A stretch of DNA of 64,000 nucleotides from a virus, in IMG/VR virus record IMGVR_UViG_3300045988_180190. One strand, written 5' to 3'. The position numbers were made by a program, and so were the translations under genes. Positions 3,035 to 63,139 of the stretch are shown here, one piece after another. Below the pieces are notes generated by a model, which saw nothing but the letters and a program-made list of their open reading frames with translations, was not told the origin of the DNA and did not search any database. Numbering within the stretch: position 1 is the first letter of the stretch; every line of letters begins with the position of its first letter.

Positions 3035-3700
3035 TCATACTTCAATTTTAATCCCATAACTTTTAAAAAAATTTGTACAAGCACATTGAATTTGAGATAT
3101 AACATTTTGAAAATTATGCACATCTCGAAATTTTATGGCAAAATATATGTTTTTGCTTGCTCTGCTAATAACCCAATTGACACATTCCTCCTCAGGATCT
3201 GAATAAACTGCCATTACATAATTAAATTCATGTTTCTTATGAATATTCAGATCCAAAGGGCGTTTAGTATCAAAAGATATTCCCCATTTGGAGATAGCAC
3301 TGTTGTCACATTGCGCGTTAAGCATCGACGCGCAAGTAAATAATTTTCCGAATATGACACTCGTTACATTGGATAATTTACTATAATCATCTTTGCCAAA
3401 TACTTTATTTGATTCAAATTTTAATTTGTGCTGTTTAAAACCCTTGTCGTCAATTACTTCTTGATATACAGTAAATTTTATTCCGAAATATCCGGAATAA
3501 AATTCATGTCCAGGAATTACCATAGACAAGAATTTTTCCCAAGCACACTTCCAACTACTATTTTTATAGTAATCACTAAGCTCCCACTCACTAAAAGTAA
3601 GATCAATACATAACTTCTCGTCATCTTCCTGAATTGGAACGATGGGTATTGTTACAGTATGCTGGAACACATTTATATAGTATTCTGGTGAAAATTTCAT
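3035..3700 (-). CDS. hypothetical protein (221 aa)
   Basis: ATG at 3700-3698 overlaps the TGA of the tmk-like gene (ATGA coupling). Confidence 0.75.
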   Translation of the reverse strand: MKFSPEYYINVFQHTVTIPIVPIQEDDEKLCIDLTFSEWELSDYYKNSSWKCAWEKFLSMVIPGHEFYSGYFGIKFTVYQEVIDDKGFKQHKLKFESNKVFGKDDYSKLSNVTSVIFGKLFTCASMLNAQCDNSAISKWGISFDTKRPLDLNIHKKHEFNYVMAVYSDPEEECVNWVISRASKNIYFAIKFRDVHNFQNVISQIQCACTNFFKSYGIKIEV

Positions 3701-4374
3701 AATAAAATTTTATTTATATAGTTATATACGTTTTCCGCAAGTGCAGTAGGTTCGCTATCTGCGTTCACATAATGCAAATTGCCCAATAAGTTTGGATAAT
3801 AAACTTGCATAAGTTGAATTTGTTCTTCGTATCTTAGGCGCAGCTTAGTAAACCATTGCAGATCCTTTTTATCCATTGCATCAGAAGAATGCAGCGAAGA
3901 TTCTCTTTTAGCTAATCTTTCGATTATAAGATTTGGTTTTAAATCCAGGTAGATTGTGCTGTCAACTTTTAACAATTTAGAAATTGTTGACAACATTAAG
4001 TCAACCAGCTTAGGGAATTTTCCGGGATACTCCTGCGGAATCATCTGATATACACAGCTAGACAGAACAAATCTGTCACACAATATAACAGGAGAAGACG
4101 CATTTTTAATTTCTTGTAGCAAAAAGTCTTCCAGCATTTCCAATCTTGCTGCAGAAAACAACAAGAATGCGCGGAGCTGTTTAAGCTCCGATGCTGAAAA
4201 GTCATTTGTCTTCAACCACTCACGTACAAATTTCCCAATGGGTGTCCCTCCGTAAGGCTCATTTACGCAGAGCGGTCTAAATCCATCTCTAGATTCAAAA
4301 ATATTGCATAAATTATTGATAAGTGTGGTTTTACCACACCCATCGCAAGCTTCAAATACAATAATTTTAGACAT
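3697..4374 (-). CDS. tmk: thymidylate (dTMP) kinase
   Basis: P-loop IVFEACDGCGKTT, then NEPYGGTPIG, LLFSAARLE, CDRFVLSSCVYQ and YLDLKP..RLAKR, in the order and spacing of bacterial Tmk. AAGGAGGA RBS upstream (4380-4387 region). Confidence 0.85.
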   Translation of the reverse strand: MSKIIVFEACDGCGKTTLINNLCNIFESRDGFRPLCVNEPYGGTPIGKFVREWLKTNDFSASELKQLRAFLLFSAARLEMLEDFLLQEIKNASSPVILCDRFVLSSCVYQMIPQEYPGKFPKLVDLMLSTISKLLKVDSTIYLDLKPNLIIERLAKRESSLHSSDAMDKKDLQWFTKLRLRYEEQIQLMQVYYPNLLGNLHYVNADSEPTALAENVYNYINKILL

Positions 4375-4385
4375 AACTATCCTCC

Positions 4386-4607
4386 TTATTGGTTATAATA
4401 ATCGATTCTTGGTTTTTGATAGCACCCAAAGCCGATCGATACCAGACTTCCGTCACATTCGCATTCCCGAATCCTTCGGGATACCGTTGCTCCGGCACAT
4501 ATGATAAAATTTTTGTCGAGGAGATTATTTGATTGGACAACATCAACAAGTACCTCACGTACTTTTTTTGATTTTGCCTGTTTGGATTTTTGTTTCTGTG
4601 TTGACAT
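4386..4607 (-). CDS. hypothetical small basic protein (73 aa)
   Basis: ATG at 4607-4605 with AAAGGAAA RBS. Lys-rich N-terminus and Cys-rich C-half (ECECDG...GFGC). First gene of the leftward unit, at a divergent junction with 4654. Confidence 0.65.
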   Translation of the reverse strand: MSTQKQKSKQAKSKKVREVLVDVVQSNNLLDKNFIICAGATVSRRIRECECDGSLVSIGFGCYQKPRIDYYNQ

Positions 4608-4653
4608 AATGTTTTTCCTTTTTTGTAATTAGATTAATTAATATTTTTTTATT

Positions 4654-4905
4654 ATGCCCTCGAAATCGAAAGCACAACAAAGATTCTTCGGTATGATATA
4701 TGGGGCTAAAAAGCACCATACCGAAGACAAGTTAACTGGCAAAGCTAAAGAAGTTGCTGATAAACTTACCAAGCGACAAACAAAAGACTTTGCGGAAACC
4801 AAAACTTCTGATCTTCCTGAAACGACTCAGGAAACCAAAAAGCAAGAATACAATAGAAAGGTTGCTTCTGCCTTATGGCAAGAATGTATCCGACTATTTT
4901 CTTGA
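4654..4905 (+). CDS. DUF3008-like small protein (83 aa)
   Basis: N-terminus MPSKSKAQQRFFGMIYGAKK...KDFAETKTSDLPE matches my memory of the MPxKSKAQQ...FAxTKxxxLPE pattern of DUF3008 proteins. One of only three plus-strand genes in the window. Confidence 0.6.
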   Translation: MPSKSKAQQRFFGMIYGAKKHHTEDKLTGKAKEVADKLTKRQTKDFAETKTSDLPETTQETKKQEYNRKVASALWQECIRLFS

Positions 4906-11653: not shown

Positions 11654-13807
11654 TTAAAGCATTGAAACTGCAATATTAGCGCTGCTAACAGCAACACCTA
11701 AATCATAGTTTACAGTGTCACCGCTCATCGAAGTGATTGAAGCACCTGTTCCAAATATTACTTCGCGATACCAAACGTTATTAGTTGCATCATATTCAAA
11801 GACCGTACGGGACTTGGCGCCACCCTCTGACGCTATTGAGTCAAATACGACTTTATATCCAGCCAAGCTACTAACATTTGATGGTATGGTAATCGACCCT
11901 GTTTTACTCGTCGATTTAAAAGCAGTTTCACGATTTAATATGCCACCATTTGTGTTAATTGTATCTAACGTTGAGGTGGTTAGCTGTACGCTTATATTAG
12001 CATTAGCTACTGTTACAGCACTCGGAGGAGTACCAGCTTGTGTAGTAGCACCTAATTTTAGAGACCCACCACTAGCTGTACTTTCTTCATAATACGTAAG
12101 CGCATCTTGCTTTGCAGCTAAACCGTCATATACAGCTTTCGCTGATGGCAGTTGCTGATCGGTTGAAGAAGCGCTTAGCGTGGTCTGAATGGCAGAACCC
12201 GTTACTGATCCATTAACAGTTAACTGGTTAGCTACTGTAAACGTTTGTCCGGTAAACGTGGGGGCTGAAAACGATCCAGCTCCAACTTCGCCAGTAAAGT
12301 AAGTCTCTCCAGACGAAACTGAGCCTATATTCTGCGTCTTATTTTGCAATGCAGATATATCAGTATCAAGTTCAGTCAAAGCACCTTCAACAGTGTCAGC
12401 AGTTATACCATCTATAGAAATGCTGCTGTCTTGTTTTCCAGAATTGCTGGTATTGATTTCATTAATGGCACCTACAATTGTCTTGTCCGTGGTATCCAGA
12501 TTGTCATCATAGGTATTGGTTGTAACACCCGCAATGACAGCTGCACTTACATCACTGGCTGACTGATAACCTAAAACGCCTTTCCACGTAGCAGGTACGA
12601 TATTGGACGCATCAACTTTAGCAGCACCATCGGCAGTAGTTTTAACTGCGGTAAGAGCTGTATCTAAGGAAGTTAAAGCATCAGGGATTGTAGTTTCTGT
12701 CTCACCTTGAATGTTAACCGATATTGTAGCATCTTGCTTGCCTGCAAGTGAAGTTTGCAAGGTTCCAATTGCCGCAGTATTATCAGCAACGTCTTTTACG
12801 AGACCGGATTCTGCATTACCGACAGTGGTTTGCAGTGTCCCTATGTTTGTGGTGTTAGTTGCAACTTCACCGTCTAATTCGTTAATAGCGCCGACAACCG
12901 TTTTAGCGGCAGTAGTTAGCGAATTGTCATTTTTCGTTTGATAAGCGCTTAAATCAACCGAACCTCCAAGAGCATCCCATTTGGTTCCATCCCAAGCATA
13001 GTTTGTACCTGCGGGATAATTGCCATAAGCTGCCTCGACGTTATAAACGTCACCAACCTCTGCATCATCCGGAAGAGCATCATAAGTCGCAACGCTTCCT
13101 TTGTAGGTATAAACCCCTGAAATGCTGGACTTAACTTCGTTGATAGCAGTTACAACCGCATTGGTGCTGGGTATGCGTCCCGTATTTCCCGTTGAAGATG
13201 GAAGTGTTTCATCAATGACGGAACCGGTAATACCGTTAGTAGTATCTAAGGTGACTGTTGCAGCACCTGTGCCATTCCCAATCGTCAGCGTAGTAAGTCT
13301 GGCGCTGGAACCTGTTTCAATGAAGTTTCCTATAGCATCCGCAACAGCTTTTTCAGACGCAACCTTTGTATCAACTGCGCCTTCCTCCGGAATGACTGTG
13401 GAAATGTCAGTCTTTAAAACTACATTGTCTGCAGTTGGAATATTTTCCAGTTCAGACTGAATACTATCTATATCGCTTTCAATAGCATTAATGCGGGTGT
13501 CGGTTTGTGAAATGCGTACCCAGTTTGCACCAGAATTTGCAGTAGCATCTTTATTAGCATCATTAGCACCACTATTTTGCAGAACATATAAGCCATTGTT
13601 CTCTGGAGTGTCATTACCGACATATACCAGCATGCCATAGTAGCAGAACATTTTGCCCGCATTTGCTCCTGCAGCAGATGGGGCTTGCCAAGTGGAAGCT
13701 GTATATAGATCCGCCTTGGTGTCCACCAGCATCTTTGCATCTACTGGCGCTCCTGAGGTTAATTCGATGGGTGCACCCGTTACATTTGTACCTTTAACTC
13801 TCGACAT
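11654..13807 (-). CDS. tail fibre protein (717 aa)
   Basis: AAKTVVGAINEL and TDKTIVGAINEI motifs. Gly/Ala/Thr/Ser-rich repetitive sequence. GAGGA RBS. Modules paralogous to 9008-11545. Confidence 0.8.
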   Translation of the reverse strand: MSRVKGTNVTGAPIELTSGAPVDAKMLVDTKADLYTASTWQAPSAAGANAGKMFCYYGMLVYVGNDTPENNGLYVLQNSGANDANKDATANSGANWVRISQTDTRINAIESDIDSIQSELENIPTADNVVLKTDISTVIPEEGAVDTKVASEKAVADAIGNFIETGSSARLTTLTIGNGTGAATVTLDTTNGITGSVIDETLPSSTGNTGRIPSTNAVVTAINEVKSSISGVYTYKGSVATYDALPDDAEVGDVYNVEAAYGNYPAGTNYAWDGTKWDALGGSVDLSAYQTKNDNSLTTAAKTVVGAINELDGEVATNTTNIGTLQTTVGNAESGLVKDVADNTAAIGTLQTSLAGKQDATISVNIQGETETTIPDALTSLDTALTAVKTTADGAAKVDASNIVPATWKGVLGYQSASDVSAAVIAGVTTNTYDDNLDTTDKTIVGAINEINTSNSGKQDSSISIDGITADTVEGALTELDTDISALQNKTQNIGSVSSGETYFTGEVGAGSFSAPTFTGQTFTVANQLTVNGSVTGSAIQTTLSASSTDQQLPSAKAVYDGLAAKQDALTYYEESTASGGSLKLGATTQAGTPPSAVTVANANISVQLTTSTLDTINTNGGILNRETAFKSTSKTGSITIPSNVSSLAGYKVVFDSIASEGGAKSRTVFEYDATNNVWYREVIFGTGASITSMSGDTVNYDLGVAVSSANIAVSML

Positions 13808-36279: not shown

Positions 36280-38697
36280 TTAATTAATAAACGTGTCTGG
36301 GTTATATTGTTTTAATGAATACATTGTTTTTTCAATTTCATTGTTGTTTGTCAACAATTCTTTACCCTTATACTTTGTAGGAGAGTTTAAATCTTTATTA
36401 GTAGGTACATATGTATTTATTTTTACATTCTTACCAGGATAAGGGGTATTTCTTTCGTTTACTGAAAAATCATCTGTTAATTCTGACATGTCAAATGACT
36501 GGTATCCTTCTGCCGGAGAATCTATATATTGGTAAGTTAAAGGATTAAACAACTTATTTTCACCAGAGTCCAGCTGAGTATTATAATACATTGTGTCTCT
36601 ATATACAAATTGTGCATTATATGTATTAAACCATCCGCTCTCTTGATTGGAATAAGCATATTTCTCCATTTGATCTACATCGCTAGCGTCTGAGTTACTT
36701 GTTTTCTCAAATCCTGTACCACTTGGATAATTTGCAGCATTTGGATCATAATTTACCAAGGTCTCCTGTTCAGAACCCATAACTACAGCTGGCTTACGCT
36801 GTTGTGTGTAAATTGACTTAGCATAAAATACGTTAGCCATGGATTTAATAGCGTTTAATTTTAAAGTATATCCAATTACGCTTAATGCTTTTCCAACAAC
36901 AAACTGCCCTATTCCAGAAACTAGGTCAAATAAAACATACCGACATCTATTAGCGTAGTAATAAGCGTCAGAAAATATTGTTCCATTTGTACGCAAACTA
37001 ATATCAGAACCTGTATCTTTAGTAGCACCACCGTGGGAAGTGGTTAAGATGATGCCGCTGCCATTAGCATTTTTCAAACGTTTTTCATATTCTTCATCTT
37101 CCCCTCCCGATTGATCTTTTTCCATTGCAGATTCTATTACTATTGCCCCTTTGGAGCAAAAAGCCTCTAGCCATGTTCTAGCTTTTAATAAAATTCCCTT
37201 AAACATAGCAGATAATTCTATATTATTTCCAGCATTAGCCGTAATATCTCTTCCTGCTGACAAATTTATATTCTCTGCGGCACATAAGTTAATAGATTTT
37301 GAGGAGCTAATATTTACACTTCCCCCTGACATATGTATGGCACTTCCGTAAGCATCATACAAAACAATAGAACCATCCTTAAATATACGAATTGTAGCAT
37401 AGGACTCAAGCATCTGGTTAAATTGAGTAGTATAATTTCCACCGGTATTACTTTTTTGGAAATTTCTGTCTTTGCAATAGGGGTCTGGAGGTGGAGATTC
37501 AGACTCACGAGGAACATCAAATACATTCGCAGCATAGAATCCGGCTAATGCGTAGTAATTGCTAAGCCATTTTGCATAGTCTGCTAATTTGTATGAAGTT
37601 TCGTATAATTCTTCACCGTCAAGAGGTGTCCAAACCTCGTAGGCATCCAGGTGGTCTTCTGTGGCAGCCTGTATAGACTCCAACCTATCCTTTGCTACAG
37701 GAACTGGTATTCTAACAGTCTTTTCAAATACAATATCACTTATAGACTGCATTATGACGGATCCATCTTGATTTACATGAAAATTATAACGTCCTGCTTT
37801 ATATTTCTCGGAGTCGGATTCCGTAACTAAATTCTTACCTGGATCTGTAATATAAGTATGAATAAAATTACCTATCTTACCGATAAACTTAGTAAATCTC
37901 CATCTAGCATCCCACAAGAAATTACTTTCGTCTTCAGTATCTATTTTAATATTATCTTTAGAAGTAATCTGAATTCCATCGATAGGCTCCCCCTCTTGGG
38001 AGTTTCCCAAAGCCTCATATTCATTAGAGGTCCCTTGCCATAAAACATTTAACCCACCTCCAGAATTTATTATTTTAAAGTCACCAAAAGAAGTTAGATG
38101 CTCATAATTTCGACTTAATATTCTAACTAGGTCATCAAGAATATAAGTTTCTATCATAGCTAATTCGGAGCCTTTCATACGACATAAATTATATAAAAAT
38201 TCTACACCAGCTCCAGTTTTAGTTACATAAGATGACTCACCATCCACTAGATTAATAGGATAAGTTCCTGTGGTGCGCAAAACGCCACGTTTATCATTTT
38301 CTTCTCTCTGTTCTAAAGCAATTCCTCCAAAATTACTTTTATCTGAACCTGTATAGTTAGTGAATGCAAGTTTACTATCTATTTTCTGTGTAGCAGAAGG
38401 AAGAAATCCTATAACATAATTTGCCTGAGAATTATTTTTGGTGGTACAAGAAAGTACCAACACTTCTGAACCCTTTTCAGGAAAGGTCATACTGGATAAC
38501 CCGAGCATTTGCGTAAACATATTAACCACAATAATAGCGGTTGTAGGTATCATTCTCTCATCTTTTACAATGACAGAATTTTGATTTGGGTTAACACTTT
38601 GAACCTTTGCGGTAAATAAGTGCGTGTTGGGGATATTGCTATCAGAAATGCTATGATTCTGATTTGCACGTAATGGTGAATCTATAATATTTGACAT
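36280..38697 (-). CDS. baseplate central spike / hub protein, gp5-VgrG-like (805 aa)
   Basis: Start moved to the ATG at 38697-38695 (MSNIIDS). The N-terminal OB-fold signature HLFTAKVQSVNPNQNSVIVKD...FPEKGSEVLVL...ANYVIGFLPS resembles phage_base_V/gp5. A later beta-helix-like repeat is SVNISSSKSINLCAAENINLSAGRDITANAGNNIELSA. Confidence 0.7.
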   Translation of the reverse strand: MSNIIDSPLRANQNHSISDSNIPNTHLFTAKVQSVNPNQNSVIVKDERMIPTTAIIVVNMFTQMLGLSSMTFPEKGSEVLVLSCTTKNNSQANYVIGFLPSATQKIDSKLAFTNYTGSDKSNFGGIALEQREENDKRGVLRTTGTYPINLVDGESSYVTKTGAGVEFLYNLCRMKGSELAMIETYILDDLVRILSRNYEHLTSFGDFKIINSGGGLNVLWQGTSNEYEALGNSQEGEPIDGIQITSKDNIKIDTEDESNFLWDARWRFTKFIGKIGNFIHTYITDPGKNLVTESDSEKYKAGRYNFHVNQDGSVIMQSISDIVFEKTVRIPVPVAKDRLESIQAATEDHLDAYEVWTPLDGEELYETSYKLADYAKWLSNYYALAGFYAANVFDVPRESESPPPDPYCKDRNFQKSNTGGNYTTQFNQMLESYATIRIFKDGSIVLYDAYGSAIHMSGGSVNISSSKSINLCAAENINLSAGRDITANAGNNIELSAMFKGILLKARTWLEAFCSKGAIVIESAMEKDQSGGEDEEYEKRLKNANGSGIILTTSHGGATKDTGSDISLRTNGTIFSDAYYYANRCRYVLFDLVSGIGQFVVGKALSVIGYTLKLNAIKSMANVFYAKSIYTQQRKPAVVMGSEQETLVNYDPNAANYPSGTGFEKTSNSDASDVDQMEKYAYSNQESGWFNTYNAQFVYRDTMYYNTQLDSGENKLFNPLTYQYIDSPAEGYQSFDMSELTDDFSVNERNTPYPGKNVKINTYVPTNKDLNSPTKYKGKELLTNNNEIEKTMYSLKQYNPDTFIN

Positions 38698-38740
38698 ATC
38701 CGATAATCTATATAGCAATTATTATATTGCTTTAATCAAT

Positions 38741-42174: not shown

Positions 42175-43233
42175 ATGATAAAAACTTTTAAAGTCAAACA
42201 TAATCGTGACTTGTCTGTAGAGCTCCGAAAAGCACTGCAAGTCTCAATATTTGCTTTAAAACACAAGTGTACATCTTCAGCCCAAGTTAAACAATTTGGA
42301 TTAAAATCGATAATTTCTAACCAGATAATCAGAAAGATTATTCGTAATAAACGAATAAAGTCTATACATAATGCGAATCTTATCATACCTCAGCAAGGCA
42401 TTACATACAAAAACAACATTGTTAGAATTCCCTGTTTGGACCTAAGTATAGACTTTTTTATTTCTGGCTTTTTAAAAATAAACCAAATCGAACTTAACTC
42501 TGAATATGCTTTTATTAGCTGTGATTTTCCGAGCGAACCTACGAGAGATAGCACTAATTATATAGGTGTGGATTTGAATACAACTGGACATATGGCTGTT
42601 GCTGCAAACCCTCTAACAGGCAAAGTTTGGAAGTTAAATAAGAAATCTAGTTTCACTCGGTCTAAATATAGACAAATAAGAAAAAAATTGTCCAGACAAA
42701 AGAAATTTAAAGTTATTAAAAGATTAAAAAATCGTGAACAACGTATTTGCAAAGACTTAGACCATAAAGTATCCACTTTTTTAGTCACGCTCGCTAAAAC
42801 ACAAAATTGTGGTTTGCGTTTAGAAAATTTAACTAATATTCGTAAAACATCAAAAAATAAATCTAAAGCATTTAAAGCTTCTTTGAACAATTGGTCATTC
42901 TATCAATTTAGAACGATGATAGATTATAAAGCCAAGTTGCTTGGAGTTAAAGTAGAATATATTGATCCGCGTTATACATCTCAAGCTGATAGTAGGACCG
43001 GACATATAGGAATACGCAATGCAAAGACATTCAAATCTGTTGATACCTCAACAGTTGAGCATGCTGATGTTAATGCTGCTTTTAATATTGCATTAAATCA
43101 ATTAAACATAGCTCAATTGCGTGCAGAAAGAGATGCACGCAAAAGCCATAAGGAAAATACTCCTTTAACTGACTTGGCTTTAAAGGCTCCTTCTAATAAA
43201 AGCAAGAAGACCTTAGAACCCAACGCGCTTTAG
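42175..43233 (+). CDS. tnpB: TnpB (IS605 OrfB-type RNA-guided nuclease), compact 352 aa, zinc-ribbon cysteines absent
   Basis: RuvC-I IGVDLN (D133), RuvC-II GLRLENL (E217) and RuvC-III HADVNAAFNI (D298). The PRYTSQ motif is followed by ADSRTGH...FKSVDTSTVEH where CxxC...CxxC is normally found. Confidence 0.9.
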   Translation: MIKTFKVKHNRDLSVELRKALQVSIFALKHKCTSSAQVKQFGLKSIISNQIIRKIIRNKRIKSIHNANLIIPQQGITYKNNIVRIPCLDLSIDFFISGFLKINQIELNSEYAFISCDFPSEPTRDSTNYIGVDLNTTGHMAVAANPLTGKVWKLNKKSSFTRSKYRQIRKKLSRQKKFKVIKRLKNREQRICKDLDHKVSTFLVTLAKTQNCGLRLENLTNIRKTSKNKSKAFKASLNNWSFYQFRTMIDYKAKLLGVKVEYIDPRYTSQADSRTGHIGIRNAKTFKSVDTSTVEHADVNAAFNIALNQLNIAQLRAERDARKSHKENTPLTDLALKAPSNKSKKTLEPNAL

Positions 43234-44797: not shown

Positions 44798-45829
44798 CTA
44801 GCCCCCAGCCTTTGTGCCCTCCGCGAGAGCAATCTGAGGCTTGATTTGTGGGTAAGCATTCATCGCAGCCTCTCCACCACGGAGAACAACCTTGGCAACG
44901 CCTGCGGTGTTAGCAATGAGCATACCTATAACTTCCTCAGCGCAGCAGGATATGCGATCCTTTTCACGCTTTACGTACATTACCGGCTTATAGAGCTCGG
45001 CGCATTTTCCGAGGTAATCTTCTTCCGTAAAGGCCATTATAACATTATCTGGAACAATGTCGGTCTTGAAAGTGGATATCCACTTCATACCGTAAACATT
45101 TGTACCGTCAAATGCCTTTGCACCTTCTTGGAACACCTTGCTAGTTAGGTCAACACCAAATTGGAGGAAGTTGTTATACTTTCCGTTTGTAAGTTGGCTG
45201 AATGTGACCTTGTTGACAAGGTTTACGCCATGGTTAATGCTATGCTTTGTGAAGATATTAACAATCTCGTTCATCACCACTGGTTCCATACCACCAGAGA
45301 AGGTATAGACACCGTTGTTCTGAGCAGCCACGCTATCAGCGAGGTTGTACCATACGAGGTCTTCTGTCTTAACCATGTTCTTTAGACCGGTATCCATTAT
45401 TACCTTGCGGAGGTCGAATGGATAAGTATCAAGTGTAACACGATTCTTTTGGAATTCTGGTGTCGCGATCTTGAAGAAGGTCATTGGAGCCTTGTCTGCT
45501 CTGTAGTACTGTGTATGTGTTCCTTGGTCAAAGGGAAGAACAGCTGCAGGATAGTTTGTGGGCTCAATGTAGAACATAGCTACTGGGTAGTCTGTGTTGA
45601 ACATTGGGACAAGTCTTTTATCACCCGAACCATTAAAGGTTTCAAAATGACATATTTGGCGTGTCCATCCTTTTTCGAATACTTGTTTGCGGATAAATGA
45701 AGTACCTGCGGACGAAGCCATCTTGCAAATACCCTCTCCACAGCTACCTAATTCTTGAACAAGCCTGTCGTTAAGTGCTTCACCTGAAACACCATTTAAG
45801 CTTAAATCTATATCTTTATATTCGTCCAT
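44798..45829 (-). CDS. major capsid protein, HK97-fold / lambda-E-size class (343 aa)
   Basis: Position after the protease, scaffold and decoration-like genes. The approximately 340-aa size, elevated GC and biased codons suggest high expression. A terminator follows directly. General HK97-like pattern, with no residue-level confirmation. Confidence 0.75.
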   Translation of the reverse strand: MDEYKDIDLSLNGVSGEALNDRLVQELGSCGEGICKMASSAGTSFIRKQVFEKGWTRQICHFETFNGSGDKRLVPMFNTDYPVAMFYIEPTNYPAAVLPFDQGTHTQYYRADKAPMTFFKIATPEFQKNRVTLDTYPFDLRKVIMDTGLKNMVKTEDLVWYNLADSVAAQNNGVYTFSGGMEPVVMNEIVNIFTKHSINHGVNLVNKVTFSQLTNGKYNNFLQFGVDLTSKVFQEGAKAFDGTNVYGMKWISTFKTDIVPDNVIMAFTEEDYLGKCAELYKPVMYVKREKDRISCCAEEVIGMLIANTAGVAKVVLRGGEAAMNAYPQIKPQIALAEGTKAGG

Positions 45830-54498: not shown

Positions 54499-56931
54499 TT
54501 ATATCTTATTTGTTGTATTGGTAGATATCCCCGAGGTTTTTTGGATTAAGTCCAGCGTTAATTCGGATAGCTGTCTAAAGCAAGCCAGCACTGAATTCTC
54601 TAACCCTTTGATATCGTCACTTCCATAGTATTTTACGAAGTTTTGAGGACTTATTATTATTAGGAATAACAGTCTTGCCAACTTATCCATTCCATCTCTA
54701 AGAGAAGGAAGGAAATCGTTTATATACATCTGGGCGTCAGACACCTGAGATAATACGCTTACAATACCATGTTCAAATACACTACGCTGTCCACTTCTCT
54801 GGGCAAACTCCGCAAGCATATTTGGAGTAGCTGTCTGTAAGAAGTCGCTTGGGTCTTCTCTTGATACACCTTCGGTATTAGAAGCCGCTTCCATAAGAGT
54901 TGGAGTCATCATATCACCGTATCTTGGAGCTGGAGGTGCGTAGGACGTTTCATCCGTCATCAGTGCCCTTGTTTCTGGTATTTCATATGGTATATTTAAG
55001 TCTGAGTCAAAACCCTCAAAGAAATCTGGATCTGGATTTAAAATAATTCTATCCGCAAATTTCTTAAATAGGAATTTATAATCCTCACCGCGTTTTTGGC
55101 TATCATTTGCATGCTTAATTATATAATCGGCAGTTTCTTCGGAAATATTTACATTCCCCATAAGCAACGCCATAGCACCCATTACATTTACGTTTGCAAA
55201 TTTAAATCCTGCTATGTTTAAGTTATAACTGCCATCACCATTGTAATTGACATATCCATGTCCTACGCTGGAATGCTTGACCAAAGTATTGGCATATAAA
55301 GTTGACCAGTTACCGGGAACCCAATCTGCCTGAACTATTCCGATATTATAATCACTTTTCTTAAAGGAATACAGATTATTTATATCAAAATGTTTCTTCA
55401 TATCTCCAGCGAGATCTTTGTATTCAATTGGAAGTTCTATCCAACGCACACTGGGTAAAAATACCTTTAAATCATAAATCGGATATTGAGCAGACGGATT
55501 TACTTGTATAATCTCATCTGTTCCAAACACTTGTGTTCTCCAAGGCGAGAAATCATCATATCCATATGCTGGATATGCCTTTACGGTATATCCACCTGGT
55601 GAGTCTGCGTTATCTTTTACTTCTCCAATATAAAATGCTTCATCTGATATATAGCAATATTCCGGATCCCATATGCCATAGATCTTACCTGCTTCTGGCT
55701 TGACTTTTAGAACTTTTGATAAGTCTTCCTCCTTTTTATCATTATCTTTTTCCTCTATCGCTAAAATATTCCTAAAGTTACCAATAACAGGATCATGAAA
55801 CCCTGGAGCTTTAACATTTTCATCCTCTTGATTATATAATTCTTTAGGACTGTTAATATCATGATACTGAATTATTCCTTTACGTTCCGGATCTATCGAA
55901 ACTAAAAGGGCTGGAGTTTTCCCATAATCTGAGTTTCCCACAATAGCAACACACCTAACCGTAGACCCGTCAGTAGTTAAAATATCGTAAACAGACGGAG
56001 CGTTGGTAGAAATGCCTGCCCAATTCTGATCTGGATCTGCATCATAGATCATATTAAGCTGGTCTTCATCTCGATTATCTTCAAAAGAATATCCCTTCGT
56101 AATTTGCTCGGCTGCTGTCTTAACGGCATTCTTATTAAAAATACCTTTATGTAAGACTAATAAATTTTTCGGCTTTGCTGCTTCAGATGCCTTTTTCACT
56201 TGGAGAGCCCTTGCTTCTTCAAGCACGTCCATTGGAATATAATCAGATTCGTCACAAAGCCCCACTACGTTATTTGCAAATTCTTTATCAGATTTTAAAG
56301 CCTCTGCAAGTTTGTTCCATGCGTCTATTCCAGCGGATTTTAAAAATTTGTGTAATGGGCTATAATCTACATCCTTTGACTCCACAAATGTGTTAAATAC
56401 AGAATCATACATTGAAGTAAACGAAGAAAAATCGTCTTGATCCGTATCTGATAGATTTAGTTCTGAAGCAAACTTCTTAAGTGAAGAGGTTTTATAAAGC
56501 GGTGTGGCAATACGCATCATTTCAATGTCCTGCTTCCCTTGATTTGCTAGAGACATGTCCACAGCAGTACCATCTCCACTTTCTTCATAGAGTCCTATAA
56601 AATAATTACACCAATCAGGATTAAGGTACACGAACTTCTTTTCGTCTACATTATATAAAAATTCTGTTCCCTTTACTTGCCCGTTTACATAGAATACTGG
56701 GGCATATAGAATATGTTTATTTACTCTAAATACGTAAATTCCCACCATCTTTGTGAAAGCGTCATTTGTCTTGACAATCTCAAAACCAAGATAGTAGTCA
56801 TTTGTAAAAAATGGAGAAGCCTTATCTTCCATTACGGTTGATGAAGCTCTATAAAAAGCTATTTCAGCATCTGTTTCTTTAAGAGCAGAAGACGCAGCCT
56901 TCTTGAAATCATAGTCTTTTAAGGATATCAT
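54499..56931 (-). CDS. large virion protein (810 aa); portal candidate by size and position only
   Basis: Largest ORF upstream of the protease in the head block. No portal motif recognised. Confidence 0.75.
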   Translation of the reverse strand: MISLKDYDFKKAASSALKETDAEIAFYRASSTVMEDKASPFFTNDYYLGFEIVKTNDAFTKMVGIYVFRVNKHILYAPVFYVNGQVKGTEFLYNVDEKKFVYLNPDWCNYFIGLYEESGDGTAVDMSLANQGKQDIEMMRIATPLYKTSSLKKFASELNLSDTDQDDFSSFTSMYDSVFNTFVESKDVDYSPLHKFLKSAGIDAWNKLAEALKSDKEFANNVVGLCDESDYIPMDVLEEARALQVKKASEAAKPKNLLVLHKGIFNKNAVKTAAEQITKGYSFEDNRDEDQLNMIYDADPDQNWAGISTNAPSVYDILTTDGSTVRCVAIVGNSDYGKTPALLVSIDPERKGIIQYHDINSPKELYNQEDENVKAPGFHDPVIGNFRNILAIEEKDNDKKEEDLSKVLKVKPEAGKIYGIWDPEYCYISDEAFYIGEVKDNADSPGGYTVKAYPAYGYDDFSPWRTQVFGTDEIIQVNPSAQYPIYDLKVFLPSVRWIELPIEYKDLAGDMKKHFDINNLYSFKKSDYNIGIVQADWVPGNWSTLYANTLVKHSSVGHGYVNYNGDGSYNLNIAGFKFANVNVMGAMALLMGNVNISEETADYIIKHANDSQKRGEDYKFLFKKFADRIILNPDPDFFEGFDSDLNIPYEIPETRALMTDETSYAPPAPRYGDMMTPTLMEAASNTEGVSREDPSDFLQTATPNMLAEFAQRSGQRSVFEHGIVSVLSQVSDAQMYINDFLPSLRDGMDKLARLLFLIIISPQNFVKYYGSDDIKGLENSVLACFRQLSELTLDLIQKTSGISTNTTNKI

Positions 56932-57000: not shown

Positions 57001-57405
57001 CTAACTTCTAGCTATATCTTTAGAAAAATCGTCTAGATTAGATGTGAAATTAGGATCACCCGATCGCGAAATGGCATTGCGAAGAGCTTTAGCTTTTCCT
57101 CCCTGTCCTTGTGATTCAAGAATACTAACTTTCTTTCCCAAATCCGCGAGTGCATCACTCTTCTTGCCATAATCGCTTAAAATATTTTTAAATAGATCAT
57201 TATTATTGTCCAATAAGGTATCGTACTTACCAGACTCTCTGTCCTCCGAAGTTAAATTTGCCCCATAATTACTAGAGTCAAGAGTAGAATCCTTCTCATC
57301 CATATCCCCTCTGTCTGCTTGATTAAGCACAGATTCCGTAATCTGATTCTTAATCCAGTCTGGGCTCGCTGCGAATTTTTTAAAATTTAAAATTTTAAAT
57401 GACAT
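57001..57405 (-). CDS. hypothetical protein (134 aa)
   Basis: ATG at 57405-57403. Hydrophilic. Confidence 0.7.
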   Translation of the reverse strand: MSFKILNFKKFAASPDWIKNQITESVLNQADRGDMDEKDSTLDSSNYGANLTSEDRESGKYDTLLDNNNDLFKNILSDYGKKSDALADLGKKVSILESQGQGGKAKALRNAISRSGDPNFTSNLDDFSKDIARS

Positions 57406-57427: not shown

Positions 57428-58483
57428 TTAGCCTGCAGCAGTTGTGCCATTATTGGGGGTTTGCATAGCTACCTGTGGAGCAGTTCCCCATTGCTGAATT
57501 CCCTTAGCAACCTCCTCATTAACCGGAGCACCTTGATATGCCTGATATACCTTATCAACATCCTTGGGAGTAAAGTTAAATGTGGAGGCTAAGGTGCCAT
57601 AATTATTCAGATTTTTTCCACGTATATTTCTAGCCATCAACTCATTATATGTTCTATTCATATTATTTTGATTTTGTAGATATGGCATCGCCTCAGCTCT
57701 TTGCTTTTGCATAAAATTATTATATGCCCAATTCTTTGGAATAATTACTCCCATACCACTCAAGAATTTTTGAATACCTACTTTTATTTGATTCCAGAAA
57801 TCTAAATTACGGAAATCTTGGTTTGCCTTATTTGTAAGTTGTTCAGAAGCCATAGCCTGAAAATTTCTAGATTGTGCCAAATTTTTCTGAACAGATTGCT
57901 GATAATTATTAGCATTATCTTGTAACGCCTTTGTGTAAGCGTTTACGTCATTAATATTCTTATTGTTTAATGTACCAGCGGCTAAATTATATCCTACAGA
58001 CTTATAAGCTTCGTTAGTATCTCCTAATGCGGATCCAGTTCTGTCAGCCTCATTTACTTGGTTCTGAAAATTACGTGCAGAATTCATAGACCTTCTACCC
58101 AATTCCTGCTGTAAAGATTGGCGAGAGTTAGTCTTGCCCCCAAACAGAGTAGTACCCTTTATGACACGATCAGCACGTGCCTTCCCCATTGAATTTTTAA
58201 ATCCATTTCCGCTTAACCATCCTATTCCTCCTTTTGCCGCGTCTACAGCCCAGGTAAGAGGACTATTCCACCCATAGTTTTCATTATAAACCTGGTTCAC
58301 AGCGTCTCCAATTCCTTGGGTTAAATCCTCTCTAGGGGTTAATGGCGCACTATTGTTTGCAAACTTTGCAAAATTAGACATATTCAGTCTGTTACTTATG
58401 CGCTGATGAGTTGTGGTAGAAGCAATCTTTAAGTGATCATTGTAATGCTTCGCAAATTTATTAAAATTTTGTATATTTAACAT
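57428..58483 (-). CDS. hypothetical Asn/Gln-rich protein (351 aa)
   Basis: ATG at 58483-58481, 2 nt after the beta-prime gene stop. Confidence 0.7.
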   Translation of the reverse strand: MLNIQNFNKFAKHYNDHLKIASTTTHQRISNRLNMSNFAKFANNSAPLTPREDLTQGIGDAVNQVYNENYGWNSPLTWAVDAAKGGIGWLSGNGFKNSMGKARADRVIKGTTLFGGKTNSRQSLQQELGRRSMNSARNFQNQVNEADRTGSALGDTNEAYKSVGYNLAAGTLNNKNINDVNAYTKALQDNANNYQQSVQKNLAQSRNFQAMASEQLTNKANQDFRNLDFWNQIKVGIQKFLSGMGVIIPKNWAYNNFMQKQRAEAMPYLQNQNNMNRTYNELMARNIRGKNLNNYGTLASTFNFTPKDVDKVYQAYQGAPVNEEVAKGIQQWGTAPQVAMQTPNNGTTAAG

Positions 58484-58485
58484 AA

Positions 58486-60762
58486 CTAAAATCTACCTGT
58501 TTTATCTACGTTTTCCGCAAAATCTGGCATAGACATTCTAACGAACGGGTCTATATTGTCTTTAATATTTGTCTTATAACCTCTTACCGCAGATTCTACA
58601 TAATTTTTAGCCTGGTAAGGAGCATTTGCTCTTTCCAAGAAATCTGTATTTCCCTTATTGGGAACCTCTCTAAGTCTAACATACACAGGAGAAAAACCTG
58701 GTTCATTATCCGAAACATAAAGCTCATCTGTAATACCCGTGCGCTTAATATGGTCCAGCATCTTATTTGTAAGTTTTGTTCCTATTGTGTAATGTAATAC
58801 TGGGGCTTGCAAGTATTTGCCTTTTAAATTAACATTTTTATCATTGAGCTTTACTTTTTTTGCATCTTTGTCCGGTACATAAGAAGCCTCTAAAGCATTA
58901 TAAGATACTATATCGCCAGGTAAGTAATCTCCTAATCCATCTGGATCGGTAATTTCTACCTTATCTACGATACCTCTAGCTAGGACTTCTAAATTTCTTT
59001 TATGCGCCGGTGCGTTACTATCGTCCAGTAGCTGTTTTCCCGTTTCCACGAAAACTCTCCTACCTTCCCCGAGTCCTCTTAGGCGTACAACGTCCTCTAA
59101 GTCTACTAAACCATCTGCTAGCTGGTCTCCCTGCTCGACTTCTTGACCTTCTTTAACTTCTATGTGAGAATCCGGGTCAGCATAATGCTCTATTCCATTA
59201 ACAACTATATAAGTTCCACCTTGAGGAGCTGGTGTTATTCTTTCCACTCTCCCATCTGATTCTGCTAGAGGGGCACGAGATTTATAGTGCTCTGGAGATT
59301 CAAAAAACTGGTTAATATAATTAAATCCCGAAAAGGTTCTCTTCTTTCCTTTGAATCCCCCAGCTTCGTGTTTTGAAGAATTATGTGACAAGAGACCATT
59401 TTTTAATACGAATAAATGTGTATCTCCACTAATTTCTATGTCAAAACAATGCTGCAATCCTACATAGCGAATCTGTGTAATCTTCGCAGGGTCACCCCTT
59501 ACGTCTAAACATAAATTTGAGTCAAATATTTCTTGCACTGGAAGGTCTTTTAATTCTCCGTATATTTTAAATCTATGTTGTCTAGTACAAACAACAGAAT
59601 ACTCTATATCATCAACAGAAAATATAACCTCATATACATTGCGAATATTCTGGTCTATAACAGAAATGATTTCCTCAGGAACTAGTGACTTACCATCTTT
59701 AGAGATACTTATTACCTTCTCCCCTGGTTTTAAATCCTTAATTTTTTTAAACTGCTGTGACCATAGCATAACTTCTGTATCTTGATGCAAGCATAGTCCG
59801 CCCTGAATAGCAGGCTCACTAACAGAAGTTGCCGCTGCAATTCCTGCATGGAACTCTCCAATTCTAGGCAATCTTTTATTGTAATCCAATCCAAAAGCTT
59901 CTGCAGAAATACCTTCGGGAGAAACTGTGGCAATTGGAGAATGCACTATCACAGTTTTTACACCTTTATTTTTAAGAGAATTTAGTACGTCACGATCAAC
60001 TATGGTTCCCTCAGCAAATCCTCCCGCCGGACGCGCAAGCACTCGTCCGTAAAGTGATGAGTCGTCTATGTCTAAGTCTATACCATTATTGGAAAGATCT
60101 TTTTTAGACGTAATCATCATATTTGCCACTGGGCGAAATAAACTTTTACCCCAACCTCCAAATTTAGCTGTACTTTTTTTGATAGCGATAGTTGAAGCTC
60201 TTGTACCATAAGTGCTAGCTAAATATTCTGGAATGGATAATCCTTCTCCAAAACTTTTCTTAACAAAGAAAGGAATCGTTCTACCCTTATAATCTGTATA
60301 GAGTGCTGGAGTTGTAATTAAAGCTTTTAACTGAAAGGGAGAACCTCTTGCTCCAGAGGATACAGAGTTATAAAGATTATTATGCTTTTCTTTAGCAGCA
60401 TTCAGTGTATCTTTCTCAAGCTTTGTAGCATAACGTTCGTATACCTCCATTATAGCTTTGTTCTTTTTGTTTTCATCTTTTATATTCCTCCTTAAAAACT
60501 GCACCTCTTTATGCATTTCTTCCAGTGCAGCTTCCTTATCAAATGGAGGTTTAAAATCCGAAAGTTTCAAAGTCTGTCCAGAGTAGTATACTGATTTACG
60601 AGCAATATCCATTAATTTATCCATTATATCCCTGTATCTGTCTGGATATTTTTCAGCAATAAGAGACTGCAACTCGTTTATTGACTTCGTGTCATATGTG
60701 CGAGTGTAGTCCCTTATATCCTCGGGTAAAACGGAATTAATTAAATATTGAATAGCTTTCAC
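58486..60762 (-). CDS. DNA-directed RNA polymerase beta-prime subunit, C-terminal half (phage multisubunit-RNAP type), interrupted by a mini-intein (758 aa precursor, about 620 aa spliced)
   Basis: Collinear with bacterial RpoC from SGARGS onward. Matching segments: SGARGSPFQLKAL; FGEGLSIPEYLASTYGTRAS (bridge-helix region); LYGRVLA; GEFHAGIAAATSVSEPAIQGGL[intein]SSKHEAGG (trigger loop, compare [28 protein letters not shown]); APLAESDGRV; VKEGQEVEQGDQLADG; KRNLEVLARG. The start codon is GTG (60762-60760). Confidence 0.85.
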   Translation of the reverse strand: MKAIQYLINSVLPEDIRDYTRTYDTKSINELQSLIAEKYPDRYRDIMDKLMDIARKSVYYSGQTLKLSDFKPPFDKEAALEEMHKEVQFLRRNIKDENKKNKAIMEVYERYATKLEKDTLNAAKEKHNNLYNSVSSGARGSPFQLKALITTPALYTDYKGRTIPFFVKKSFGEGLSIPEYLASTYGTRASTIAIKKSTAKFGGWGKSLFRPVANMMITSKKDLSNNGIDLDIDDSSLYGRVLARPAGGFAEGTIVDRDVLNSLKNKGVKTVIVHSPIATVSPEGISAEAFGLDYNKRLPRIGEFHAGIAAATSVSEPAIQGGLCLHQDTEVMLWSQQFKKIKDLKPGEKVISISKDGKSLVPEEIISVIDQNIRNVYEVIFSVDDIEYSVVCTRQHRFKIYGELKDLPVQEIFDSNLCLDVRGDPAKITQIRYVGLQHCFDIEISGDTHLFVLKNGLLSHNSSKHEAGGFKGKKRTFSGFNYINQFFESPEHYKSRAPLAESDGRVERITPAPQGGTYIVVNGIEHYADPDSHIEVKEGQEVEQGDQLADGLVDLEDVVRLRGLGEGRRVFVETGKQLLDDSNAPAHKRNLEVLARGIVDKVEITDPDGLGDYLPGDIVSYNALEASYVPDKDAKKVKLNDKNVNLKGKYLQAPVLHYTIGTKLTNKMLDHIKRTGITDELYVSDNEPGFSPVYVRLREVPNKGNTDFLERANAPYQAKNYVESAVRGYKTNIKDNIDPFVRMSMPDFAENVDKTGRF
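59380..59793 (-). mobile_element. mini-intein (138 aa, Hint domain only, no homing endonuclease) in the beta-prime trigger loop
   Basis: Cys1 (TGC, 59793-59791) in block A CLHQDTEV. Block B VCTRQHRF (TxxH). Block F CFDIEISGDTHLFVL. Block G NGLLSHN, with terminal His-Asn (Asn 59382-59380) followed by Ser+1 (59379-59377). Removing it restores the RpoC trigger-loop consensus. Confidence 0.85.
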
Positions 60763-61498: not shown

Positions 61499-62170
61499 CT
61501 ATTTAATAAGTTTTGCGTCAAGAATTCTTGCGGTTAAAGCCTTCTGCAGTGCTTGTATCTGCGTAAGAGCCTTAGCGTTTTTCTCTTGAAGCAATAGCAC
61601 GCCTTCTATCTTATTGCATATGGACTTAGCGTCACTCGGGTTTTCCAAAGCTAGCAAGTTACTTGCAAAGAATTTAAATACTTCACCATCTTTCCAATAC
61701 AAATCCGAAAAAGCTTCTGCAGGTGCTGTTAGGAAATAGGAAAAATCTTTCATTGCATATGCAATGTTCCCCTGCTGAGATATTTTCAGCTTATTTCCTT
61801 CTAGAATCCATCCGCCACTCTTTAAGTTGGCATAGAATGTTGGGTCTTGTGCGTCTTTTTCCCTAATAAATGTCTCGGGATGCAAGCAGCACAAAGTCCA
61901 GTCTGAACCCGTTAGCTTTAAGCCTGCACAATATGTGATGCAAAACATTTCACGTGAAGCATCATATACTTGTTTCTTTGCTTCATCCGAACTCTTGTAA
62001 GATTCCCAAGCAGCTTTTAGGTCGTCACCATTTGATTGGGTAAACTTAACTGTGTCTTCCCAACTTGTTGAGAATGCCGATTTAAACTCAGCCTTTAGTT
62101 CTTCTAATGATTTAGCATTTGCAGCTAAACAAACGAAGCAAGCGGTAATAGCTATAATAATTTTTTTCAT
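61499..62170 (-). CDS. secreted or lipoprotein-like protein (223 aa)
   Basis: N-terminus MKKIIIAITACFVCLAANAKS: a signal peptide with a possible lipobox ITAC, or an ANA-K cleavage site. Confidence 0.7.
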   Translation of the reverse strand: MKKIIIAITACFVCLAANAKSLEELKAEFKSAFSTSWEDTVKFTQSNGDDLKAAWESYKSSDEAKKQVYDASREMFCITYCAGLKLTGSDWTLCCLHPETFIREKDAQDPTFYANLKSGGWILEGNKLKISQQGNIAYAMKDFSYFLTAPAEAFSDLYWKDGEVFKFFASNLLALENPSDAKSICNKIEGVLLLQEKNAKALTQIQALQKALTARILDAKLIK

Positions 62171-62171
62171 G

Positions 62172-62456
62172 TTAGTTCCTATCTGTTATTAATGATTTAA
62201 TTTCTTCTAAAATATAAATTTTTTTAAAGCCTATAGCTTTATCATAATCCTGCCATTTGTACCAGATAAAAGTATTTGGGTACACATCAAATCGCTTCTT
62301 CCAAAACTCTAGTGGTAGCGATTGCTCGTACTTAAAAGTGAGCATATCATCTGCATAATCTATGAGATCGTTTAACTTATAAATATCATAATCAGGCGTT
62401 GAACCTAACAAGTATGCAAATGGCATACATAATATGCATAGTAATTTCTTTATCAT
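62172..62456 (-). CDS. small signal-peptide protein (94 aa)
   Basis: N-terminus MIKKLLCILCMPFAYLLGS. The ATG overlaps the upstream TGA (ATGA at 62453-62456). Confidence 0.65.
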   Translation of the reverse strand: MIKKLLCILCMPFAYLLGSTPDYDIYKLNDLIDYADDMLTFKYEQSLPLEFWKKRFDVYPNTFIWYKWQDYDKAIGFKKIYILEEIKSLITDRN

Positions 62457-63139
62457 AATTTAACCTTTGAATCTCCGTAGTATGTTGGAAGTATAGAAAT
62501 CCATCTCTTTACACCACTCGGTAGTAGCTCAGCTTTAGACATATTTTGTCTCCATACTATTATAGTGTTATTAGGATCTGTAAAGATTTCTCTTATATAA
62601 TCTCCTCTTTTTAATCTTCTTGTTGTAGAGTAGCGCCCAAAACCTGTGTAAACCGGGACATTAACAATGTCGGTAGCATCCACTGAAGGATAAAACCAAA
62701 CTCCTGTTGCAGTGTTGGAACCTAGAGAAGCTCCAATAGAACCGGTTGCGTAATTCGAAAATTGTACCCGTTGCCCAAAACACCTGTTGTAATCCCCGCT
62801 ACCTGAAGTAGAGAAATAGTATATTGTAGGACTTGAGTCTGTAATATTGGAGTGTCCATTTATATAGGTAGAGTATTGAAGTGAGAATGTTGCGGAGAAA
62901 TACAAAGTATTTCTATACTGGTCTATGACTTTAATCTCAAAATCCGAACAATATTTAGAGTCCGAATAAGGTGAAGGACTCATATCCACATATATGTAGA
63001 AATCCCTATATATTTTATTAACACTTGGTGACTTACCAGTTGTTGTATCATATACAAAGGGTTTAGTAGCCGAGTGCAGAGCTAGACTACAAAAGGCCAT
63101 TAAACCTAGAAAATATAATTTTTTAATACTTAAAAACAT
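62453..63139 (-). CDS. secreted beta-rich protein (228 aa)
   Basis: N-terminus MFLSIKKLYFLGLMAFCSLALHSATKP (signal peptide). Tyr/Ser/Thr-rich mature part. AGGAA RBS. Confidence 0.7.
   Translation of the reverse strand: MFLSIKKLYFLGLMAFCSLALHSATKPFVYDTTTGKSPSVNKIYRDFYIYVDMSPSPYSDSKYCSDFEIKVIDQYRNTLYFSATFSLQYSTYINGHSNITDSSPTIYYFSTSGSGDYNRCFGQRVQFSNYATGSIGASLGSNTATGVWFYPSVDATDIVNVPVYTGFGRYSTTRRLKRGDYIREIFTDPNNTIIVWRQNMSKAELLPSGVKRWISILPTYYGDSKVKL

Follow-up and report, generated by a model that had tools for sequence, protein, structure and literature searches.

The 64,000-nucleotide stretch of viral DNA analysed here (IMG/VR record IMGVR_UViG_3300045988_180190; hereafter the window) carries near its right edge an open reading frame (ORF) on the minus strand that is identified, from sequence and predicted fold, as encoding the precursor of the C-terminal β' subunit (β'-C) of a phage bacterial-type multisubunit RNA polymerase (RNAP). 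The reading frame contains an in-frame mini-intein, and the following features were assigned to it.

58486–60762, minus strand: whole ORF of 758 amino acids with a GTG start, encoding the precursor of the β' C-terminal half of the RNAP, in-frame mini-intein included.
59794–60762, minus strand: N-extein, amino acids 1–323, with the SGARGS motif, the bridge helix and the first trigger helix, ending in SEPAIQGGL (from alignment to the β' chain 8dy7_D and invariant residues).
60340–60357, minus strand: SGARGS motif, amino acids 136–141, of which S136, G137, A138 and G140 are invariant in the family.
60115–60234, minus strand: bridge-helix region, amino acids 177–216, beginning IPEYLASTYGTRASTIAIKKSTAKFGGWGK, aligned with the bacterial bridge helix.
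59380–59793, minus strand: class-1 mini-intein, amino acids 324–461 (138 residues), from the Pfam Hint match, DnaE-type similarity and a homolog that is gap-free here.
58489–59379, minus strand: C-extein, amino acids 462–758, starting SSKHEAGG, with the second half of the trigger loop including a conserved Lys-His pair, followed by the C-terminal β' domains (from alignment, profile and Foldseek comparisons).

Removal of amino acids 324–461 (window 59380–59793) from the translated ORF gave an extein of 620 amino acids, which was used for the comparisons that follow. A phmmer search against PDB matched 77 bacterial β' chains below E = 1, the best being 8dy7_D (E = 1.6e-30), with residues 7–487 of the extein aligned to β' residues 666–1169 across the SGARGS motif, the bridge helix and the trigger loop. 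A custom profile hidden Markov model (HMM) built from 67 phage β::β' fusion proteins recovered from IMG/VR matched the extein at model positions 1493–2045 of 2070 (E = 1.5e-92). Identity to bacterial β' was only about 20–27%, and Pfam alone gave sub-threshold matches (Rpb1_5, 24.3 bits against a cut-off of 28.5; Rpb1_4, 21.1 bits against 24.8). An AlphaFold2 model was made of the intein-free homolog P0003, which is 77% identical (mean predicted local distance difference test score 85.5; predicted template modelling score 0.78). It superposed over its full length on bacterial β', chains of which were the top matches (Foldseek against PDB, E = 1e-25; template modelling score 0.65–0.68, query-normalised), showing that the C-terminal 130 or so residues that phmmer left unaligned are likewise part of the β' fold. 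A 36-residue helix at positions 177–212 of this model occupies the position of the bridge helix, in which G186, R188, K195, T198, G202 and K206 are invariant across the family.

The GTG start (60760–60762) lies 7 nt past the TAA of a preceding 201-amino-acid gene and is supported by the family homologs, which begin at the identical residue (consensus MKAIQLL.NS.LPED). Neither a DFDGD- nor a GNKG-type motif was found in a six-frame search of the window; the NADFDGD-type Mg2+ motif is thus not part of the β'-C polypeptide, and Pfam and the custom HMM detected no further RNAP subunit in the 64 kb. These results agree with a sequence-only reading of the window, which had described an ORF collinear with the C-terminal half of RpoC from the SGARGS motif through the bridge helix to the trigger loop, devoid of the N-terminal NADFDGD half, starting with GTG directly after another gene and alone in the window as an RNAP subunit. 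The comparison with RpoC that it had proposed as a check is significant at both the sequence and the profile level, and the fold agrees. Although that reading mentioned a 'spliced sequence', it never named the 138-residue mini-intein in the trigger loop. The bare identification of β' is not new, since family members are already named 'RNA polymerase subunit beta'' by the Joint Genome Institute; what adds interest is the intein, the dispersal of the polymerase over five ORFs and a probable split intein.

The mini-intein has the HINT motifs of DnaE-type class-1 mini-inteins, with Cys1 (CLHQDTEV), block B (TRQH), block F (CFDIEISGDTHLFVL) and block G (NGLLSHN) ending in His-Asn, followed by Ser+1, and it contains no homing-endonuclease domain. 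The Pfam Hint match (E = 1.3e-5; 25.3 bits) fell under the cut-off of 29.7 bits, and similarity to DnaE-type inteins was found at E = 4.6e-8. In the translated ORF the junctions read GGL/CLHQDTEV...LLSHN/SSKHE. P0003 reads IQGGLSSKHEAGG over the junction without a gap and continues uninterrupted through the intein site (IQGGLSSKHEAGGFKGKKRTF), which identifies a precise in-frame insertion. Alignment of the trigger loop placed L323 at E. coli β' M932, the +1 Ser at R933 and the next His at H936. Being flanked by the equivalents of M932 and R933, the intein interrupts the trigger loop at its catalytic tip. The mini-intein would excise itself and restore the loop, and only the spliced 620-residue protein is expected to be catalytically competent, because the trigger loop would fold only after intein removal. 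We consider it likely that splicing is both required and active. Inteins in the RNAP genes of eukaryotes and their viruses lie in second-largest subunits (PMC1635734); the window intein shares with these the insertion in a highly conserved catalytic site and differs in that its host protein is a phage β' and its site the trigger loop.

Selection on the gene is strongly purifying. The extein retains each of the 52 columns found invariant among 43 homologs, including SGARG, the bridge helix and the trigger-loop residues E, P, L, K, H and G, with K326 and H327 among them. The ratio of non-synonymous to synonymous substitution rates (dN/dS) of the extein was about 0.04 against relatives 85–89% identical in protein, and 0.016–0.044 against a 99% relative. 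The intein is far more diverged than the extein (51% identity; dN/dS about 0.27). The β'-C family comprised 447 clusters at E < 1e-5 among the scored candidates, most members being 610–625 amino acids long and encoded on contigs of 140–225 kb. Many members (among proteins P0001–P0120) carry inteins of 135–405 amino acids, some with LAGLIDADG domains, located at several adjacent trigger-loop positions (extein 320–329), in the bridge helix (extein about 195–202) and near residue 266; one homolog, P0015, carries two. Judged from these sequences, the family is an intein hot-spot with independent insertions. Inteins are known to favour the most conserved positions of essential proteins, a preference documented for RNAP second-largest subunits (PMC1635734), and the targeting of highly conserved sites in this family argues for function. 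Taken on its sequence features, the gene product is very probably a functional RNAP subunit.

The partner genes were read on contig IMGVR_UViG_3300045988_177658 (164,347 bp), which is collinear with the window and 94–96% identical to it in nucleotide sequence. Nothing RNAP-like lies within 10 kb upstream of β'-C in the window's clade. The custom HMM detected a 70-amino-acid tail of the N-terminal part of β' (β'-N) at the very edge of the relatives' loci, and three upstream walking steps from this tail gave the full partner set, listed here by contig coordinates.

66,459–67,262: β-N-a (HMM 15–262, E = 4e-57).
Between β-N-a and β-N-b: ORF of 399 amino acids with an N-terminal leader.
68,450–69,604: β-N-b (HMM 266–460, E = 1e-38).
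73,071–74,891: portal, homolog of the portals of Vibrio phage D181 and Salmonella phage Arash.
About 16 kb following the portal: metabolic genes, including ThyX, MT-A70 and Cpn10.
90,980–94,357: β-C::β'-N-a (HMM 482–1412, E = 7e-251).
95,376–96,359: β'-N-b, which completes β'-N.
108,925–111,198: β'-C, counterpart of the window gene.

The polymerase core thus consists of five ORFs dispersed over about 45 kb, the four partner ORFs being spread over about 30 kb. The right edge of the window corresponds to contig position ~105,600, so the nearest partner ends about 9.2 kb outside the window. β-C::β'-N-a matched Pfam RNA_pol_Rpb2_6 (E = 8e-50) and Rpb1_2 (E = 5e-13), both above cut-off, and carries an intact catalytic motif, GADFDGD, in an ORF separate from that of β'-C. 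The partners for which the sequence-only reading had suggested a search were hence found as β-N, β-C::β'-N and β'-N-b, and since they lie just outside the window, the decayed fragment without partners that it had named as an alternative is largely refuted. That reading had also been unable to place the phage lineage; by sequence comparison the lineage is a large metagenomic family of more than 400 clusters, distantly related to Arash and D181.

Other routes to related loci were less productive. A search with an alignment of the D181 and Arash fusions, which yields clade-specific patterns, returned only the D181/Arash clade, and contigs with the β'-C family showed no overlap with β-motif contigs outside the D181 clade. 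The window's clade was missing among the listed matches of a degenerate DNA pattern for GDKxxGxHGNKG across IMG/VR, because the motif is interrupted by an intein and reads RSGNKL, and it was not among the best 80 of 136 matches in a scan with a β-N alignment. A conserved promoter motif of at least 14 bp, sought as genome bait, was not found. The roughly 16 kb between the portal and β-C::β'-N (locus L236:8950–10492; locus L230:2369–2806 and 4431–4745) are occupied by non-structural genes, which also include those of Lar-like zinc-ribbon and pentapeptide-repeat proteins, and the ancestral adjacency of portal and β seen in Arash and D181 is broken up in the window's clade.

Three further inteins or intein fragments were recognized in the partner genes. 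β-N-b reads ...IDAVVGPE/CIVFN...(≈150 amino acids)...WTGN/SEKIGVD (locus L394:2309–3460). The insertion follows ...VVGPE, the equivalent of the ETPEG motif of β, and D181 reads ...DPSRTPE-SGMAGID straight through this site. β-C reads GDKM/CYHPDTD...(≈172 amino acids)...FSGN/STRSGNKL, inside the GDKxxGxHGNKG motif (L230:4840–8214), with a weak match to Pfam Hint_2. The third lies at the break in β'-N. β'-N-a ends GADFDGD-CQWGHVFVCIRNS-stop (L230:8161–8217; contig ~94.3 kb), and the next RNAP ORF (L230:9236–10216; 327 amino acids) begins with about 237 residues that have the typical intein blocks F and G at their end (GYDLTVPGYETFINYSGIVLSN); TMNVHVPALPEAQ comes next. After this C-fragment β'-N-b continues TMNVHVP..., and the intein-free homolog at locus L231 reads DFDGD-QMNVHVP. 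The fractured arrangement is kept in seven diverged relatives, with a spacer of about 1 kb to about 6.5 kb. Together with the trigger-loop intein, four inteins would thus occupy four active-centre motifs: the ETPE(G)-like and GDK...GNK motifs of β, and DFDGD and the trigger loop of β'.

On these sequences, a naturally split intein after DFDGD with an N-fragment of about 11–13 residues appears to be the simplest reading of the break. The C-fragment of β'-N-b is recognizable as an intein at the motif level (Pfam E = 0.075; phmmer of the reconstructed split intein against the TFIIB intein in PDB, E = 0.35), and joining of the β'-N pieces by trans-splicing is, on the sequence evidence, somewhat favoured. 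Natural atypical split inteins, AceL-TerL (25 amino acids) and GOS-TerL (37 amino acids), are rare, and engineered S1 splits of 11 amino acids can splice (PMC11766414); the candidate N-fragment of about 13 residues is shorter than those of the natural examples. A group I intron was considered as the cause of the fracture and rejected, there being no Rfam intron match and the spacer varying from 1 to 6.5 kb. The spacer also contains a near-threshold match to the Rfam abiF RNA (L230:8416–8453, plus strand; 36.4 bits against a gathering threshold of 37; E = 1.5e-4 in a 1.5-kb search), just upstream of an ORF of 165 amino acids.

In the window, β'-C is followed on the minus strand by candidate internal proteins and the capsid gene.

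57428–58483, minus strand: ORF of 351 amino acids with the leader MLNIQNFNKFA, immediately downstream of β'-C, candidate internal or ejected head protein; no family match.
57001–57405, minus strand: ORF of 134 amino acids with the N-terminal leader MSFKILNFKKFA.
54499–56931, minus strand: ORF of 810 amino acids with the related leader MISLKDYDFKKAA and weak C-terminal similarity to a D181 protein of 622 amino acids.
44798–45829, minus strand: major capsid protein of 343 amino acids (phrog_2522, E = 1e-4), homolog of Arash gp226 (E = 5e-22) and of the D181 capsid protein.

The placement of β'-C in a structural block upstream of a 343-amino-acid capsid gene, already proposed from the sequence alone, is borne out by these capsid matches. 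In D181 it is the 622-amino-acid protein that follows β'-C, and the gene order from β'-C via proteins of 600–800 and about 500 amino acids to capsid and tail is common to the window, D181 and Arash. A common N-terminal leader, M-x-x-(I/T)-x-N-F-(K/N/R)-K-F-A, opens at least seven ORFs that are dispersed between the RNAP genes and show no other relationship to one another. Three of these follow β'-C immediately in the window, and others are located outside it (locus L005:2165–2992; L230:10998–12176 and 12216–13208; L394:1091–2287); none had a Pfam or PHROG match. The leader might mark internal or ejected proteins for capsid targeting or for processing by a protease. It is reminiscent of the capsid-targeting sequences of T4 internal proteins, a resemblance that we take as a lead and not as a test.

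Among described proteins, Arash gp216 and gp206 are the closest relatives; these have been annotated and detected only, without analysis. They were reached by tblastn against cultured phages, which gave distant matches (27–29% identity) including Vibrio phage D181 (187 kb) and Salmonella phage Arash (181 kb). As in the window, β'-C of these phages is a separate protein of about 606–620 amino acids in the structural module, whose partner fuses β to β'-N; the β'-C sequences are only 27–31% identical to that of the window. Arash gp206 (1525 amino acids, annotated as 'β') consists of β (residues 30–1028) fused to β'-N (1139–1519, matching E. coli β' 177–521). In D181 a homing-endonuclease gene interrupts the β::β'-N fusion, leaving β-N and β-C::β'-N as separate parts. 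Whereas the Arash fusion is a single protein encoded next to the portal, in the window's clade it corresponds to four ORFs with the portal between them, plus inteins, and the catalytic motif AADYDGD of Arash and D181 is replaced by GADFDGD.

Phages of the phiKZ/AR9 type likewise encode a two-barrel RNAP, with the equivalents of β and β' split over several genes, and package one RNAP set in their virions for early transcription (PMC7824862, PMC7598289). The likeness to the split polymerases of giant phages, suggested earlier from the isolated β' half, holds as far as the splitting goes, with β/β' in five ORFs, and does not extend to membership of the phiKZ clade. The phiKZ-type subunits are highly divergent, and bacterial β' is a much better match to the window protein (Foldseek E = 1e-25) than are phiKZ-type BFVD entries (~1e-7, for example, Erwinia phage Joad); the tblastn match of β'-C to AR9-like phages was weak. 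Moreover, the closest contigs are of 164–174 kb, below the >200 kb of jumbo phages, and the window's clade is distinguished by the β-C::β'-N fusion and by intein-mediated fragmentation.

A parallel for the position of the break is found in cyanobacteria and plastids, in which β' is divided at about the same place into γ (RpoC1) and β' (RpoC2), the C-terminal half likewise bearing the bridge helix and trigger loop. The N-terminus of the extein aligned to residues ~10–40 of the cyanobacterial RpoC2 chains 8gzg_Z, 8h3v_B and 8syi_Z, and the β'-N part of Arash aligned to cyanobacterial γ, suggesting that the break between β'-N and β'-C coincides with one at a position known to tolerate a split. 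The window protein differs from these in being viral, in the fusion of β'-N to β-C and in a trigger loop that holds a removable intein instead of an SI3-type insertion. The extein also matched the C-terminal third of single-chain phage β::β' fusions in IMG/VR (24–29% identity), in which the whole core is one polypeptide as against five ORFs in the window's clade. Such chains, of about 2,000–2,300 and up to about 2,870 amino acids and spanning β, β'-N and β'-C, were encoded on many IMG/VR phage contigs (L077–L196); within a partial coverage of the literature, no published description of them was found.

The explanation that we consider most probable overall is that the window gene encodes the spliced β'-C of an assembled and probably packaged phage bacterial-type RNAP. 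In the mechanism proposed, the 620-residue protein would assemble non-covalently with β and the β'-N pieces, the latter being stitched together in trans by the split intein with its N-fragment of about 13 residues after DFDGD, and the enzyme would be synthesized late, enter the capsid during packaging and, once injected, transcribe early genes without reliance on the host polymerase. Late synthesis, packaging and injection are considered probable because the genes lie among head, portal and leader-bearing genes and because the Arash homologs were detected in virions. By mass spectrometry of Arash virions, gp206 gave 3516 spectra, the most of all proteins, compared with 1210 for gp216 and 1333 for the capsid protein (PMC10585845). 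By analogy with Arash, we lean towards virion packaging of the polymerase in the window's phage.

Several observations weigh against this explanation, and most of them would fit a functional phage RNAP subunit in a non-virion enzyme, for example, one serving late transcription, with its position in the structural block reflecting co-regulation or ancestry. The Arash proteome also included many enzymes that are clearly non-structural, such as ribonucleotide reductases, RNA ligases and helicases, and the authors note possible carry-over (PMC10585845), so that virion association is not secure even in Arash. The RNAP subunits are devoid of the NFKKFA-type leader shared by the neighbouring candidate internal proteins. 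The ~110 kb examined yielded a single polymerase set and no additional (non-virion) one; in phages of the phiKZ type, by contrast, a virion RNAP is accompanied by a second set for a non-virion enzyme (PMC7824862). The non-virion alternative is nevertheless rather unlikely, given that the RNAP genes have kept their place among portal, capsid and head genes in Arash, D181 and the window's clade, across lineages sharing only 25–30% identity, and that gp206 gave the most spectra in Arash virions; a polymerase encoded solely in a late-type structural operon could presumably not serve early or middle transcription without carry-over from the preceding cycle. Two further points against the packaged polymerase concern the evidence itself: the partner genes were read on a 94–96% identical contig and not on the window's own molecule, and the trigger-loop Arg (R933 equivalent) is Ser, next to a Lys that is family-invariant.

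The same Ser substitution, the sub-threshold Pfam matches and the distance of the partners (more than 9 kb past the window edge) could be taken to indicate a decayed or exapted β' fragment serving as a non-catalytic structural or internal protein. This is very improbable in view of the complete retention of family-invariant positions, including bridge helix and trigger loop, the low dN/dS values of 0.016–0.044, and the complete partner set with an intact ADFDGD and the β catalytic domain. In addition, the independent inteins that family members carry in the trigger loop and in the bridge helix are expected at essential conserved sites (PMC1635734). Capture or mis-binning of a bacterial rpoC fragment, that is, host-derived or assembly contamination, would account for the closest solved structures being bacterial β'. 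This explanation, the least probable one, is refuted by the gene's surroundings and by the spread of the family, the protein being so distant from bacterial β' (~20–27% identity) and its gene being embedded among co-oriented phage structural genes, with more than 400 clusters on phage-like contigs of 140–225 kb in addition to the cultured phages Arash and D181. The boldest form of the packaged-polymerase explanation, in which a widespread lineage of phages of ~165–225 kb carries a virion bacterial-type RNAP whose core is stitched post-translationally from five products by three cis-splicing inteins and one split intein, is put forward tentatively and is in its entirety doubtful.

Phage multisubunit RNAPs have been studied almost only in jumbo phages of the phiKZ/AR9 type. 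The window gene represents another lineage, apparently a very abundant one, whose polymerase is recognizably bacterial in sequence and fold and is encoded within the head-gene module. If packaged, it would represent a second, independent route to host-independent early transcription by a cellular-type polymerase, and a tractable minimal β/β' core. With four inteins in four active-centre motifs of one enzyme, the window's clade is an extreme case of intein colonization, and an intein-laden polymerase makes the regulation of host enzymes by inteins directly testable; if splicing were conditional, it could gate the polymerase, which might, for example, stay inactive up to the stage of assembly, packaging or injection. 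The split intein predicted here, with its very short N-fragment, would be of practical interest for protein-ligation tools. For annotation, an 'orphan' β' half is a reason to look for fragmented partners at distances of tens of kb.

Elsewhere in the window, Pfam and PHROGs searches of 36 ORFs yielded little, the matches being TnpB, DUF2345, thymidylate kinase, the capsid protein and phrog_25354. The TnpB-like protein of 352 amino acids (42175–43233, plus strand; Pfam Cas12f1-like_TNB, E = 1.8e-17, with a weak RuvC-like match) is encoded by the sole sizeable plus-strand ORF in the minus-strand structural block and resembles an IS200/IS605-type insertion between tail and head genes. Just upstream of β'-C, two small minus-strand ORFs (61499–62170 and 62453–63139) have signal-peptide- or lipoprotein-like N-termini (MKKIIIAITACFVCLAANA... 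and MFLSIKKLYFLGLMAFCSLALHS..., respectively) and may encode membrane or periplasmic accessory proteins within the structural block. A protein of 812 amino acids (36280–38718, minus strand) gave a sub-threshold match to DUF2345 (E = 1e-5; 25.9 bits against a cut-off of 30.7), a domain that occurs in VgrG-type proteins, and is a possible tail-spike or baseplate protein. A thymidylate kinase (Pfam, E = 8e-23) is encoded on the minus strand at 3697–4374, towards the opposite end of the window from β'-C.

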